In this document: one piece after another, positions 2,156 through 63,744 of the stretch
Numbering within the stretch: position 1 is the stretch's first letter
Layout: each line of letters starts with the position of its first letter
Assembly (NCBI GenBank): GCA_951406725.2
Contig: OX597830.1
Location: forward strand, 10,664,001-10,728,000
From: Octopus vulgaris
Taxonomy: Eukaryota
Reading direction: 5' to 3'
Length of the DNA: 64,000 nucleotides
Translations under genes and position numbers: made by a program
Notes under the pieces: generated by a model
Told to the model about the DNA's origin: nothing
What the model saw: the letters and a program-made list of their open reading frames with translations, nothing else
Database searches by the model: none

Positions 2156-2694
2156 TATATATCATCATCCTCATCATCATCATCAATGTCCACTTCTCCA
2201 TGTTTGCATGGTCCAAAGTACCACACAATGGGACTGACCCTGAAGCCATGTGACTGGTAATCAAACACCTTAGCAACACATCCATTCCTGTGTCCACATG
2301 ATGGTAATTATAGCCAGATCTTTTAATAATTTATGCTAGGAAGTAACCATTTTTTGTCTGTCAGTCTTTCTATCTTTGTGTAGTGAAAACACACCAATAT
2401 CTTCAGACTTATGAAAATAAGAACTAGAGGGGTTAGGGGTGACCAGAACCTCCACAATACCAAATAATTATAACTTTTGGCTAAGATATTCTCTGTAAGA
2501 ATATATAAATTTCTTTCATCTACGCTTAATCTCCGCAGCCATCGTAGAGTAGCATGTTAGCTATGGAAGATCATCTTGGTCACCTTTGTAGGAGAGGATT
2601 TCACCAATATCATCAGATCAAGCATGAAATATGGTTAAGTAAGGTTTAAATGATGATAAATATCAGAGTGAGTTATCAACAGTAGCAGAAACAC

Positions 2695-3130
2695 ATCGTG
2701 ATGTAAATATGCCATTTGAATATGGCTAACCCCTAAGGGTGGATGCTACTGTAGTTTTTAGCCCCAGGAAGACATCTCCTCCAGCTGGCTATAGACGTAC
2801 TTTCTGTGCCCGTATTTGTAAAGAGAACCTCCTTCCTATCGACAACTGTGATTGTCACACGCTGATGATAGGTCAATACCTTGAAACTCGGGTCCGTGTG
2901 TATCATAAGTTGAAGACGGGAAGGATGGCTTCCATTTGCAAATACTGATGTAGGCACAGAAAGTATGTCTATAGCCAGCTGGACAACTGTGATGTCACTC
3001 TGATGGGGCTAAAAACTACAGTAACATGGTCCGTGTGTATCATAAGTTGAAGAAGGAAAGATGGTAATACAAGCAAGAAATATTGAAGAATTCTTTGAAA
3101 TAATTTCAAATGGCATGTTTACATCACGAT
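2695..3130. mobile_element. Foldback (inverted-repeat) element with hammerhead ribozyme at its apex
   Basis: 2695-2720 pairs with 3105-3130 and 2781-2810 with 2953-2982. Arms are homologous to the elements at 50.7, 57.5 and 63.4 kb. The right arm is partly scrambled (2983-3104). Confidence 0.75.
2856..2900 (+). ncRNA. Minimal type I hammerhead ribozyme, intact core
   Basis: CACACG-CTGATGA-tAGGTcaatACCTt-GAAA-ctcggg-TC-CGTGTG: perfect 6-bp stem I, canonical core, 4-bp stem II, near-palindromic stem III, GUC cleavage triplet ending at 2894. Confidence 0.8.
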
Positions 3131-3557
3131 AAGGTTTAAATGGTTTAACAGGAAAGCTTTCACAGATTACACAAAGGATTAATGGATCAACTATTGTATG
3201 CTGTTTCAGCCAAGAATCTTAGACTGAAATAGCAGACCAAATATTGGGTCTTACTACTATTGGGGATCTCTTCTGGTGAAAGCACATCAGTAACCTTTTT
3301 GTATTTCTTTTGAAATATGCTGCCTTTGTTTCAGTTCATTTAGAAATATTGAAGAATTTATTGAAATAATTCTCCCATTATTAAGCTGGACTTAAGAACA
3401 TAAAAAAAACATGGAATTTCGTTGGAAGGTTTTAATTTCAATTACTTTAAAGCAAGAAGGTTCCACCATAGAATCAGGAGAAATTTCAGGCAGATTAGTA
3501 TCAAAAGTGTTTAGGAAGGTTTGAAACAGCATTTATCAGTGAATGGAGGGTCTGTGT

Positions 3558-12380: not shown

Positions 12381-13240
12381 ATACAAAATTTAAAGGACTG
12401 ACCACTAAAAGTGGATGGTCAATATGCTAGATGTAGACGTCAAAATCGCTATTTTCCACAAAGAATGTGTTCTCAAGAAAAAACTCAGCAAAAACCAAAG
12501 TGTAAAAAATAAGCAAGACAAATAAAAATATTCGTATATTTTCATTTGTCTTGCTTATTTTTTACACTTTGGTATTTTGATGAGTTTTTTCTTGAGAACA
12601 CATTCTTCGTGGAAAATAGCGATTTTGACGACTACATCTAGCATATTGACTGTCCACTTTTAGTGGTCAGTCCTTTAAATTTTGTATGTAAAAAATATTT
12701 TAATCTTCAGATTTTTTTAATATGCTAGGCCACTGGTTTTAATTGATTAATATCAATTTCTACCCTTATTCCATTTCATATATATATATATACATGTATA
12801 TATATATATGTATATGTCTATATGGATATTTGTTCATATTTTTTTATATATATTAAATAATACGTGTATCATGTTTAATGTATTAATATTAATATTTTTA
12901 AAGTTCCTTATAACCTCTGACGAGGCCTATGGTTATATATATAAGTACTCTATTTTTAAATGCCTACAACCTCAATATATTGATAACTATAGGCAATAAA
13001 AATAAAAATAACTACTTTTAACCATAGGCTGAAACAGCTGTAAGAAGTGATTTTAATGATTTCAATAATTTATATTATGATTTTTATAATTTGTATTCTT
13101 ATCTTATATGTATTGAATTATAAGATATATATGTATATTATTGAGGTTCTCATTTTGTTAAATGAATAAATAATCTAACATTCTAATATCCGAAAGTTGA
13201 TGAACAAACTAAATTTGTTTCTCCATTTTCTTATTTGTAT
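12381..13240 (+). mobile_element. Penelope-like (pseudo-LTR) remnant: 307-bp palindrome plus hammerhead motif
   Basis: Near-perfect inverted repeat 12381-12687 centred at ~12534; HHR core at 12917-13042; 13090-13240 is homologous to 59820-59968. Confidence 0.6.
12915..13044 (+). ncRNA. Hammerhead motif with greatly extended stem II
   Basis: CTGACGA (12917-12923), 12-bp stem GGCCTATGGTTA/TAACCATAGGCT (12924-12935 with 13019-13030), GAAA, palindromic CAGCTG, then TA. Stem I is weak (about 2 bp). Confidence 0.55.
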
Positions 13241-49844: not shown

Positions 49845-50741
49845 CATATATATGTATGTATGTATTTGTGTGTCTGTGTTTGTCCCCACCTCCATTGCTT
49901 AACAACCACTGTTGGTGTGTTTACATCCCCATAACTTAGCAGTTTGGCAAAAGACACCGATAGAATAAGTACTAGGCTTACAAAGAGTAAGTCCTGGGGT
50001 CGATTTGCTTGACTAAAGGCAGTGCTCCAGCATGGTCACAGTCAAATGACTGAAAGGAGTAAAGGAGTATATATAATCAGACATAGCACATCTATTTTAT
50101 CTCTCTCTATCTCTCTCTCTTTTTCTCCCCACTTTCTCTTTCTCTCCCTCTCTATTTCTCTAATGTTGCCTCTTCTACATTGAAATACAGATTAAATATT
50201 TACGTAAATACTTTAATAAATAACTTAACATTTTCAAACAGATTTCTTCAATGACAGTCAGAGTCTCCGCTTTAAGATGTTGTCTAGGAAAATAAATTAT
50301 CAGCAATATCGTTATACATTTCGTTTATTTTATTCTAATTAACTTAAGATTTCTAAAAAAAGTAAGAAGTTTATTATGTACGCATCAATATATACATACA
50401 TCTGTCTGTTTGTCTGTGTGAGTTGGGTTGTGCGAAAGAACTGAAGCTGAAATTCCAGACATGGAAGCAAAGTAGACAGAGCAAAAATAAATGTTTTGGT
50501 AAGCAGGAAGGAAGTGAGGTTCTTTTAGGCATCAGGGAAATGGTAATGTTCCATTTGGAAAAAAGAGAGCTGGAGAAAATTCTAGAAGGTGTTCGCAATG
50601 TAAACAATGGACAGAAAAACAGTAAAATGGAATCACAGATCGGTTCTCAGAGAAGGTACGTTACATATCTGGCAGGACAACGAGCACTAAGAATTAGAAA
50701 ATTACTATTTGTAAATCCCACAATGAGAGATATTCAGCAAC

Positions 50742-51257
50742 AGTACTTTGGAGTAAAGATAGATTGTCAACATAACATGGCAGTCCTGGTTTAGGATGAA
50801 TGTTGTTGTAATTTAGCTCCAGGAGACATCGTCTCCCACTGGCTTTTTCTTATTAAAAAAAAAAAGTAAAAAAGGTAAAAAATTAATTGTTTATATAAAA
50901 TATTTTTTAAATAAATTTTTAAAAGTTTCATTCGAACTCATATAACATTTTTGTATTTGTTTGTCTTGTAATGTCCTTTTCTATGTATGATCAGTTTGAT
51001 CATAATAAAGACTTTACCTCTAGCCGAACAATTATTCTGTGCTGGTGATAGGAAATAACCCAGAAATCACAATATACAGATATTGTTTTGAGCTGAGTGG
51101 GGGTGCTAGATTCCCTTGTTTGAAAATGTAAAGACACAGATCATGTTGTATATATAGCCAGCTGGAGACGATGTCTCCTGGGGCTTAATTACAGCAACAT
51201 TCATCCTAAATCAGGACTGCCATGTTATGTTGGCAAACAAACTTACTCCAAAGTACT
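50742..51257. mobile_element. Foldback element with decayed apex hammerhead
   Basis: 50742-50844 pairs with 51156-51257; apex TCTGTG-CTGGTGA-taggaaataaccca-GAAA-tcacaa-TA-TACAGA (51036-51080). Confidence 0.7.
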
Positions 51258-52697
51258 AAGAATGCCTGGGATATAGATTTTCTCAAATACTCTGATGGCT
51301 CCCAAGAAGTAGTTGATAACTTTTGCTATTTAGGTGACCAGTGGCAGGAATATCCAGCAATCAGATCACTACACCTGATGTGATTCACTCGAAAATTACC
51401 CACAAACCAAAATCTATCCACCTCACCTAGAACTGGCTCCAGCAACAATTCCATGTTCTTGCACCTTCCTCTGAGCCTATCCAGTACTATAAATTCATTG
51501 CACCTCAGCTACTTGACAGAGAGTATTGATAGTCACAGCAGATGGAAGTGGACAGACCCAATCTGGCAGCACCTAAACAATGATGAATGGCAACAGCAAA
51601 AAAATAGACAGAGCCAAAAAAGAATTTGGACCTGGAGATCTCCATTTCCAGTGACTTCGAGGGCCACCTCCCAGTGGTGTTGGACATCAATGAAGAGCCT
51701 TCGACTACAACAAGACTACTAAAGTTTGTTTTTTTTCCAATGTCTGGGGTCTCCCGCTCTAAGCCCTAGATCATCACCTAATCACCCTTACCCGTCTTGT
51801 TGCTTAACAACAACAACAACAACAACAACAGCAAGTAACCACATTGTGACTGCAGCTACAATTACACCAAGAACAACAACATCCAAACTCTCTCAGCGTT
51901 TTTGTCATTTATAGTAACAACAGCGTTTTCTTTCCGTTTATGGAAATAATTAAAAATAGATTTCTGTCTTCTTCCTCATACAGACCAAATTAGCATTAGA
52001 AGTGGATGCTTCAACAAGAATAAAAAGGGGCTGGAGAAAGTTCATAGATGTCTAACCCTGTGATCATTGTCTTAAGAGACAGTTGCAGCTGCATCAGTCC
52101 ATGTCCCCCATCATTTGATGGGATGTAGAGTCTGTCTACATCTGTTTCTGGATGGAGTCAATTTTACTGAGCCTCTATCACCACTTCTCTTTCTCATGGC
52201 TTTCGTTCTTCTGTCATCATCATCATCATCATTATTTAGATGGCAAACTGACAAAACTGTTATCGCACTATGCGAAATGCTTACTAGCATCTCATCCGTC
52301 CTTACATTCTGAGTTCAAATTCTGCAGACACCAACTTTGCCTTTCGGTACCTGTACCGGTGACATGTAACAACTATCATTCAAACATAAGGCATCACAGA
52401 TGCTGGTGACGCATAACTGGGCCCCATGCTGGTGGCATGTGAAAAGCACAACTGGGCCTTGCAGAGGCAATGTGGCTGATATTGATGTCACATACATGGC
52501 GCCCCTGCTGGTGACATGTAAAAGCACTCATTACACTCTTGAAGTTGTTGGCATTAGGAAGGATATCCAGTTGTAGAAACCATACCAAATTAGACTGGAA
52601 TTTGGTACCTTACCAGCCCTGATCAATCCATCCAACCCATGCCATCATGAACAACGGACATTAAATCATCATGACATTAAATCATGATGATGATGAG

Positions 52698-57276: not shown

Positions 57277-58055
57277 TAAGGCGGCGAGCTGGCAGAAATG
57301 TTAGCATGCCAGGTGAAATGCTAGCTATATTTTGTCTGCCACTACGTTCTGAGTTCAAATTCCGCCGGGGTCGAATTTACCTTTAATCTTTTCTGGGTTG
57401 GTAAATTAAGTGCCAGTTGCATACTGAGGTCGATCTAATTGACTGGCCCCCACCCCTTAAAATTTCAGGCCTTGTGTCTAGAGTAGAAAAGATTATTGAT
57501 ATAACTATATACAGCATCGTGAAATATATTTTCCACTTAAATGTGGCTAACCCTTAAGGGTTGATGCTACTGTAGCTTGTAGACCCAGGAGGACACCTCC
57601 TCCAGCTGGCTATTGACACACTATCTGTGCCCTATCAGTATTTGCAAATGGAAGTCATCCTTACATCACATCAGGATGAAGATGGGAAGGATGGTTTCCC
57701 TTTGCAAATACTGATAGGGCACAGATAGTGTGTCAATAGCCAGCTGGAGGAGGTGTCCTCCTGGGTCTACAAGCTACAGTAGCATCAACCCTTAAGGGTT
57801 AAGTGGTAAATATACTTCACAATGCTGTATATAGTTATATCAATAATCCTTTCTATCATAGGCACAAGGCCTGAAATTTTGGGGGTAGGGACCAGTCAAT
57901 TAGATCAACCTCAGTACACATCTGGCACTTAATTTATCAACCCCAAAAGGATTAAAGGCAAAGTTGACCTGAGCAGAATTTGAACTCAGAATGTAGTGAC
58001 GGATGAAATACAGCTTTCACCTGGCATGCTAACGTTTCTGCCAGCTCGCCACTTT
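57277..58055. repeat. ~780-bp compound inverted repeat: SINE A(+), foldback element, SINE A(-)
   Basis: SINE A + at 57277-57495; foldback 57491-57848 with perfect 101-bp arms (57548-57648 and 57701-57801); SINE A - at 57845-58055. Confidence 0.85.
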
Positions 58056-62455: not shown

Positions 62456-63349
62456 CAGCAGTATTTCATCTGTCTTCACGTTCTGAGTTCAAATTCAGCC
62501 ATGGTCGACTTTGCCTTTCATCATTTAGGGGTTGATAAATTAAGTACCAGTTTTAAATCTCCTTCCCCCAAATTGCAGGCCTTGTGCCAAAATTTGAAAT
62601 CAATATGTGTGTTTGTGTATGCGTTTAGGGTTTCTGTATTTTTTACATGTTTGGTTAGCAATCACATGATGATGGGTTCAATACCAGTGCATGGCGCCAA
62701 GTGAAAGTGTATAGCCCCATGTTGAGTTGATCAATACCCTGCGAATGGAAACTGTTTGGAAGCTCATTATCTATGTTATATATGATGCTCTTCCTGCCAA
62801 CAACCCTTACCTGTTCCCTAGCAAGGTAATAACACTTTTTTCCATGACTGGTATGTTCCCATGGATGATCAGAAACAAATGACACTGCTTGTATGACAGT
62901 GAAACTCATTTACAACAATCACATGATACTGAGACAAGGAGGTACAGACACAACTATACACACATCACGGTATCAACCAGACTATCAGACATTGTTATAC
63001 ATCGCTGGTCACAATGCACTTCACACAGTTTTAGCTTTTGAATGATGCCACTCCACTGGGTGGGGTGAGCAGGCTAACTTTTTCCCTGATTGGAAGACTA
63101 GTCTATTGCAGAGTTTCCCATTAATGGCTGAGTATACTGCAGCAACATGAATGAAGTGTTTTGCTCAAGAACAAAACACACTGCCCAGTCCAGGAACTGA
63201 ACCCATGATCTGGGGATTGTGAATGTATTACACAAACCACTAGGTCACACATCATTACATATACATATATTCTTTTTAGAAATATTGAATTTCTAAATGT
63301 CTCATAGAGACATGAGCGGTGGTGGAGTGATAGAGTGGTTGTATAAAGT

Positions 63350-63594
63350 AAACATAACGTGACAGTCCCATAAAGGGAATTACACCACCGCTGTTTAGCC
63401 CTAGGTAGCATCGAACGCTTCCTGTCGGCTTTGACACATTTCCTGTGTCCTTATATTTGCAAAGGGGAGGCAAGCACCCCCACCAGCTAGGACTAGCAAC
63501 CTGAAGACATGCATGTTTCTGGGTCTTGCCCGTCATCAGTCCAGGGTAGCGAGTCCCCGCTAGCGGTGATACTTGCCAAGCCTTTGCAAATATA
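63350..63594. mobile_element. Foldback element (one arm truncated) with intact apex hammerhead
   Basis: 63452-63465 pairs with 63581-63594. Arm motifs aacataac.tg.cagtcc, tttagccc.agg and ctgtg.cc..tatttgcaaa are shared with the 2.7, 50.7 and 57.5 kb copies. Confidence 0.7.
63500..63545 (-). ncRNA. Type I hammerhead ribozyme, intact core
   Basis: Minus strand CCTGGA-CTGATGA-cGGGcaagaCCCa-GAAA-CATGCATG-TC-TTCAGG: 6-bp stem I, palindromic stem III, GUC triplet. Confidence 0.8.
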
Positions 63595-63744
63595 TCTATT
63601 TACAGTGAAATCTATTCAGTGGTCACCGTAATTAGTTCACTGGTCACCATAAGGATTTCAAATATCAAAGTCCAATGAAAATGTATATTCCTTTACACTT
63701 GTATAGCCTTTACACTTACATCTATATATATATATATATGTATA

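Follow-up and report, generated by a model that had tools for sequence, protein, structure and literature searches.

Metazoan non-LTR retrozymes are noncoding tandem repeats of 150 to 450 bp with low GC content, one canonical type I hammerhead per repeat, a self-paired fold, and target duplications of more than 4 bp (PMC7229834; bioRxiv 10.64898/2026.07.22.740005). Those of mussels measure 350 to 390 bp and form circles (PMC7229834). According to a 2020 review, these repeats bear no motif that would point to a helper (PMC7761336); a preprint argues from phylogeny that retrozymes derive from the pseudo-LTRs (pLTRs) of Penelope-like elements, which they match in Xenopus; one of nine Xenopus retrozymes cleaved in vitro (bioRxiv 10.64898/2026.07.22.740005). 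Penelope-like elements themselves insert as partial tandems with an inverted 5'-truncated copy and a tail of 30 to 40 bp, often on one end only (PMC8557442). Inverted pLTRs with 8- to 10-bp duplications and mobilization in trans have also been described (PMC3846280). A Penelope protein cuts and extends both strands, reverse transcription starts at two internal sites whose distance equals the tail, and hammerhead cleavage is not required in vitro (PMC11167929). Retrozymes, their proposed Penelope origin, and the inverted ends of Penelope insertions are already in print.

The window analyzed here is a 64,000-nt stretch of the Octopus vulgaris genome that contains a long hairpin tipped with a hammerhead motif. 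We propose, with a probability of roughly 85%, that the hairpin derives from a 352-nt non-LTR retrozyme likely inserted by a Penelope-like reverse transcriptase-endonuclease and that the foldback is likely a by-product of insertion. The word “inverted” is absent from the main text of PMC7229834 and occurs in the text of bioRxiv 10.64898/2026.07.22.740005 only in the title of a reference. A search of openly accessible papers returned no report of this octopus repeat family or of inverted, tailed retrozyme insertions.

The hairpin at 2653 to 3130 and its hammerhead motif

Positions 2695 to 3130 of the window form a long hairpin (−207.9 kcal/mol, z = −18.8) that none of 100 shuffled sequences equaled. 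An earlier sequence-only reading had recognized this foldback but had overlooked its true start at 2653, a tail, and a 12-bp target-site duplication, a mark that the same reading had suggested looking for. The copy extends from 2653 to 3130 between identical 12-bp duplications at 2641 to 2652 and 3131 to 3142 (plus strand). Its left arm is an antisense, 5'-truncated monomer piece running from monomer position m215 back to m57 (2653 to 2811, minus strand), placed head to head with a sense piece that runs from m270 to m352 and then from m1 to m173 (2812 to 3130, plus strand). The two pieces meet at 2811-2812 (m57/m270) without microhomology. Both outer ends are 3' ends, a shorter one at m173 and a longer one whose additional 42 nt (m174 to m215) form a tail at one end of the copy (2653 to 2694, minus strand), and the same 26 nt occur at both ends in inverted orientation. 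In the assembled sequence, the right arm is broken up by three templated patches on the plus strand. The alignment indicates that 2982 to 3005 was copied from the sequence immediately 5' of the hammerhead core; 3028 to 3064 was copied from 2891 to 2928, which comprises the cleavage site and the next bases (92% over 38 nt), and 3076 to 3105 was copied from the downstream flank at 3342 to 3371 (93% over 30 nt).

The hammerhead motif occupies 2856 to 2900 (plus strand), with predicted cleavage after C2894. Stem I is CACACG/CGUGUG (6 bp), the core reads CUGAUGA at 2862 to 2868 and GAAA at 2883 to 2886, stem II has 4 bp with a U.U at its base, the GUC triplet ends at C2894, and stem III consists of 2 bp with a 4-nt near-palindromic loop. 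The type I assignment and the predicted cut made in the sequence-only reading stand, but the motif is not minimal as that reading had it: because helix III is present, it belongs to the canonical metazoan form that PMC4209133 defines apart from the minimal hammerheads of Penelope pLTRs. As PMC4209133 describes them, those minimal hammerheads agree with it in a type I core, in palindromic positions around stem III, and in possible dimer cleavage; unlike them, it has a helix III with a loop. The axolotl hammerhead HHR_Amex2, as described, likewise combines a helix III of 2 bp with a basal U.U in helix II. A strict motif scan of the 64-kb window was passed by only two motifs, this one and another on the minus strand at 63539.

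Rfam hammerhead models, recommended earlier as a check, gave no match in positions 2600 to 3200 at E values up to 10, and microsatellite matches dominated the Rfam scan of the whole window among the matches listed. The hammerhead call thus rests on the core and on covariation. Across 15 motifs, 88.5% of cells were paired and 9 of 11 pairs had changed on both sides, in a comparison of few, related sequences whose structure was drawn from those same sequences. None of 500 shuffles matched this pairing, and slid controls gave 13 to 61%. The stem III palindrome is retained with different letters in each family of the repeat. The base of stem II is U.U in family 1a and carries other mismatches in families 2 and 4, and the minimum-energy fold of the monomer leaves stem III open, while a stem III duplex between two copies is worth −8.9 kcal/mol. 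In hammerheads of subfamily 1b (L013, L021, and L026), unlike those of the youngest subfamily with its U.U, stem II has a canonical G-C pair at its base and the stem III palindrome is perfect; the two subfamilies may differ in activity. The pattern of double changes supports a self-cleaving-type motif under structural selection, as had been suspected from the window.

The 352-nt repeat unit and its families

A search of the 2.8-Gb genome returned at least 122 matches from 40 scored of 3040 candidates, many of them 352 to 353 nt apart. The repeat is a 352-nt tandem monomer with one hammerhead, measured from cleavage site to cleavage site (352 or 353 nt across monomers). Related families have monomers of 350 nt (family 2) and 355 nt (family 4), and dimers and trimers are found. 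The three families are 51 to 56% identical and have the core and the fold in common. Folded as a circle, the 352-nt monomer reaches −117 kcal/mol (z = −7.3), and in an alignment of eight monomers, 31 of the 62 predicted pairs have changed on both sides. The family is noncoding, as had been surmised: GC content is 38 to 45%, the longest ATG frame spans 28 to 47 amino acids, and the monomers contain no open reading frame (ORF) with reverse transcriptase (RT) and GIY-YIG domains. A tblastn search of the window with two Penelope proteins gave no match.

Judged from its sequence, the mobile unit is this tandem monomer with its hammerhead motif, a non-LTR retrozyme, and not the foldback. The assignment follows from the canonical hammerhead, direct tandems within 150 to 450 bp, absence of coding capacity, GC content below 50%, target-site duplications of more than 4 bp, and self-pairing. 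The sequence-only reading had set retrozymes aside on the ground that they carry hammerheads in direct repeats; the octopus unit does repeat directly in tandem, and each monomer holds one hammerhead. By analogy with the retrozymes that have been studied, its transcripts would be expected to cleave themselves and may form circles. Three features of the motif weigh against a retrozyme, namely the missing Rfam match, the mismatched base of stem II, and the open stem III, and so does the low rate of in vitro cleavage among the Xenopus retrozymes. The monomer is covered by contigs from four sequencing runs, one of them large and the other three presumed, on a guess, to be RNA. Contigs that span the cleavage site came from two of the presumed RNA runs and from the large run, tandem DNA yields the same joint, and contig coverage is skewed toward the part of the monomer that is commonest in genomic copies.

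All four elements in the window belong to one superfamily (nhmmer E values of 1e−24 to 1e−44). The same profile search found eight elements in 422 kb of other stretches, against four in the 64-kb window. By a rough extrapolation from sampled stretches that are rich in repeats, the genome would hold on the order of tens of thousands of copies. The three related elements noticed beforehand are thus members of one superfamily, although the one near 63350 has no inverted arm. A family 2 copy at 50692 to 51257 (plus strand) lies within a 9-bp duplication (50686 to 50694 and 51255 to 51263) and comprises an inverted arm (50692 to 50836) and a sense arm (51016 to 51257) with a hammerhead at 51036 to 51080, the mutated core of which reads CUGGUGA and is accompanied by stem mismatches. 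Between its arms, and inside the target duplication, lie ∼180 nt of AT-rich filler foreign to the element (50837 to 51015). An older inverted copy at 57511 to 57827 has no hammerhead, both arms stopping 3' of it. This copy is flanked by diverged SINE-like copies in opposite orientation (57280 to 57498 and 57844 to 58050), and 18 nt beyond its mapped arms are inverted as well, possibly by a larger inverted duplication or arm conversion. The fourth element, a family 4 copy at 63273 to 63635 (minus strand), is in a single orientation with an intact hammerhead (core at 63539), and its apparent arms are the monomer's own stem. Of the two further apex hammerheads claimed earlier, the one at 63273 to 63635 is intact but sits in no foldback and the one at 50692 to 51257 has a mutated core, so that an intact hammerhead at the apex of a foldback is present in only one of the four window elements.

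Further palindromic and hammerhead-like structures were also seen. A separate near-perfect palindrome of ∼185 nt at 12444 to 12628 is MITE-like and has a below-threshold Rfam microRNA match. Other families of hammerhead-like motifs occur at unrelated loci (L092:175 and 2335, L097:1194 and 9295, and L139:8914), and a motif at L093:4428-4665 that weakly matches the retrozyme profile may represent a fourth family.

Insertion pattern of the copies

The orientation of family 1 copies was scored at 37 loci, which remained from 60 after loci at the same place were removed and which had been retrieved with queries that did not span a junction; L045 and L046 may still be one duplicated insertion. Inverted copies accounted for 20 of the 37 loci and copies in one orientation for 17, with one more inverted copy added at a lower length cutoff. 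By our own reading, a single hammerhead lies near the tip at 5 of the 37 and one hammerhead lies in each arm at 6. Junction positions are scattered and differ between nearly all copies. The single-orientation copies likewise have scattered start positions, with scattered 5' truncations and unrelated 5' flanks, and in dimers and trimers monomer abuts monomer without a gap. The 13 inverted loci among 13 of family 2 come from a set handpicked for multihit loci and are not a frequency. Near-identical insertions that lie 4 to 6 kb apart (L013/L014 and L045/L046) are probably local duplications or assembly repeats.

In each of the three families, the 3' ends gather at two positions (m173 and m216 in family 1, where 42 of 98 ends fall near m216). 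Among 101 loci, 63 were inverted and 49 of these had two scoreable ends, after removal of the duplicates L014, L030, L031, L034, L036, L038 to L041, L045, L060, and L082. A short and a long 3' end were paired in 48 of the 49, in a sample partly retrieved with a tail-containing query that under-samples short-short pairs but not long-long pairs, and long-long pairs numbered zero. Tails are ∼43 to 56 nt long across copies. A (TA)n run abuts 78 of 98 ends in family 1, 16 of 37 in family 4, and 0 of 26 in family 2, against a background of 6%. Automatic scoring found target duplications of 7 to 14 bp at 13 of 21 inverted loci outside (TA)n, the window copy being among those it missed.

Two features of the junctions themselves were scored. 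Under the idea that junctions form where the monomer's long stem lets two cDNAs anneal, 9 of 24 were in register with that stem, in a set selected by likeness to the window copy. In a less biased set (18 of 19 junctions resolved), at least 2 nt of microhomology was present at 4 of 11 flush junctions, compared with 16% expected by chance.

This pattern bears directly on the idea that the RNA that moves is the entire foldback, a hammerhead-tipped rod that is nicked, kept together by its arms, and then copied whole. The idea gains from the window junction m57/m270, which was found at exactly two places in the genome, the window and the unlinked locus L002, with different flanks. The two copies share a short-arm variant that no other family 1 copy among L001 to L090 has, and the long arm of the window copy carries this variant too, with an alignment break at m55 to m57. 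A second junction was found at three places, but with 14 nt of homology it may have arisen more than once. Against the idea, nearly half of the family 1 loci are in one orientation, single tip hammerheads are few, direct tandem repeats are common, and junctions differ almost everywhere. As the main route it is refuted, and the rod-shaped mobile RNA of the sequence-only reading is not supported, the inverted junction varying between copies; as an account of the family as a whole, we regard it as improbable. What the recurrence of the exact window junction at one unlinked locus does indicate, in this one case, is that a foldback probably served at least once as the source of a new copy. It would fit the transcription of a foldback source and the recopying of that single RNA from both start sites, and the alternatives for the shared junction and variant are arm-to-arm conversion or copying during DNA repair.

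The insertion marks instead resemble those of Penelope/Poseidon, Neptune, Naiad, and Chlamys elements, as these are described in PMC8557442, PMC3846280, and PMC11167929: incomplete tandems, a 5'-truncated copy lying inverted on the 5' side, a one-ended tail, duplications of 7 to 14 bp, in part of the families microsatellite targets (a bias of Neptune and Naiad elements), and a hammerhead upstream of the 3' ends. An inverted 5'-truncated copy with a one-ended tail has been published for Penelope-like elements (PMC8557442; PMC3846280), so the architecture that the sequence-only reading offered as a candidate for an undescribed one is known from those elements; its suggestion of a nonautonomous Penelope-like relative agrees with these marks. 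Unlike the described Penelope-like insertions, the octopus repeat has no ORF and its tails exceed 30 to 40 bp. Unlike the retrozymes in the published accounts, the sampled octopus copies are mostly short, dispersed, and often inverted head to head, with two fixed 3' ends.

Penelope-like elements and a proposed route of insertion

An autonomous partner was sought with two protein searches and in 34 stretches of 10 kb, which yielded three Neptune-like families. Scans of these families found no hammerhead, neither blastn nor nhmmer detected similarity between their ends and the monomer, and no autonomous partner sharing monomer sequence was found among them. Two intact ORFs match RVT_1; one of the two exceeds the cutoff for GIY-YIG and the other falls short of it. 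Three ORF fragments had no Pfam match. An autonomous Neptune-like Penelope family of this genome with intact RT and GIY-YIG domains has inverted long and short ends at 6 of 12 loci and a 28-nt tail, and long was paired with short at all 6 loci with both ends scored. Young Neptune-like families at L131:774-6487 and L174:3524-7954 have frames of 775 and 811 amino acids, many near-identical copies, (TA)n targets, and inverted insertions, and no hammerhead was found in them even when one core mismatch was allowed. The nonautonomous Chlamys elements of the MRC1 type, as PMC8557442 describes them, are comparable to the octopus repeat in being noncoding, multicopy head to tail, and in need of Penelope-like machinery; they differ in having 3' ends that resemble those of their autonomous partners, and most Chlamys elements lack canonical hammerheads.

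The linkage to a Penelope-like ORF that had been proposed as a check was seen once. At L091:1957-4830 (minus strand), the stop codon of a decayed Penelope ORF is followed after 110 nt by a young retrozyme copy in the same orientation, either by nesting or as a template-switch chimera, and no other ORF-linked copy was found among L091 to L184. This locus speaks for a second explanation, in which the copies are solo pseudo-LTRs, that is, short 3' fragments of an unsampled autonomous Penelope-like element. Their end structure, identical to that of Penelope insertions, and the match of Xenopus retrozymes to pLTRs noted above point the same way. The gapless joints between monomers in dimers and trimers, the single-orientation copies with scattered starts and unrelated 5' flanks, and the lack of further ORF-linked copies in the loci searched all tell against it. 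We consider this explanation improbable, and it alters the origin of the repeat while leaving the mechanism of insertion unchanged. A third explanation, a DNA-transposon MITE whose terminal inverted repeats enclose a chance or captured hammerhead-like interior, draws on the 26 nt shared in inverted orientation by the ends of the window copy and is refuted by variable junctions and unequal ends (48 of 49 copies), with varying interiors, duplications of 7 to 14 bp, direct tandem arrays, and a covarying hammerhead leaving it hardly any probability. The sequence-only reading had named an apex without covariation, or MITE arms around a chance hammerhead, as findings that would speak against it; covariation is present across the 15 motifs compared, and a MITE is refuted.

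Insertion of a retrozyme by Penelope-like machinery thus remains the preferred reading. The genomic copies themselves display monomers in tandem, 3' ends fixed at two positions, 5' truncation at scattered points, pieces joined head to head, duplicated target sites, and insertion at (TA)n. A Penelope-like mover is likely because the opposite arms, unequal ends, and target duplication match the marks of Penelope-like insertion, and for the same reason the hairpin is likely a scar left by insertion, distinct from the RNA that moves. Several observations run counter to this reading: the three Neptune-like families have neither a hammerhead nor similarity to the monomer, at L091 the copy is young but the adjoining ORF has decayed, the tails are longer than those described, and family 2 has no preference for (TA)n.

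Under this reading, multimeric transcripts would self-cleave at the hammerhead, either as monomers or as dimers via the palindromic stem III, and the products may circularize. A Penelope protein would bind a conserved multihelix RNA domain around m113 to m185 and nick both DNA strands. Reverse transcription would start at two internal sites, one per strand, and the two cDNAs would be joined at their stopping points. A hammerhead would come to lie at the tip only if one cDNA crossed it and the other stopped short. A read-through transcript of the window copy could in principle give the nicked hairpin envisaged in the sequence-only reading.

More tentatively, and at somewhat less than even odds, the superfamily may represent a minimal natural substrate for Penelope retrotransposition. 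Its conserved RNA domain would direct one protein complex to start reverse transcription at two fixed sites, strictly one per strand, as the ends of 48 of 49 insertions suggest; both sites would be usable on one transcript, even that of a foldback; and families with different targets would use different Penelope partners. The use of both start sites on one foldback transcript would explain both the inherited junction of the window copy and the presence of the short-arm variant in its long arm. If this reading is true, the copies would prove directly, from genomic sequence, that animal retrozymes are moved by Penelope machinery.

These copies bear the Penelope insertion signature directly and in large numbers, and the 350-nt RNA that carries it has a conserved fold. 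They bear on two questions, which machinery moves animal retrozymes and how the inverted ends of Penelope elements originate, and the 350-nt repeat offers a small substrate for in vitro work on two-site initiation. Elements of this kind are prone to misannotation as MITEs or as novel hairpin RNAs, and their long double-stranded transcripts may be substrates for RNA editing or silencing.
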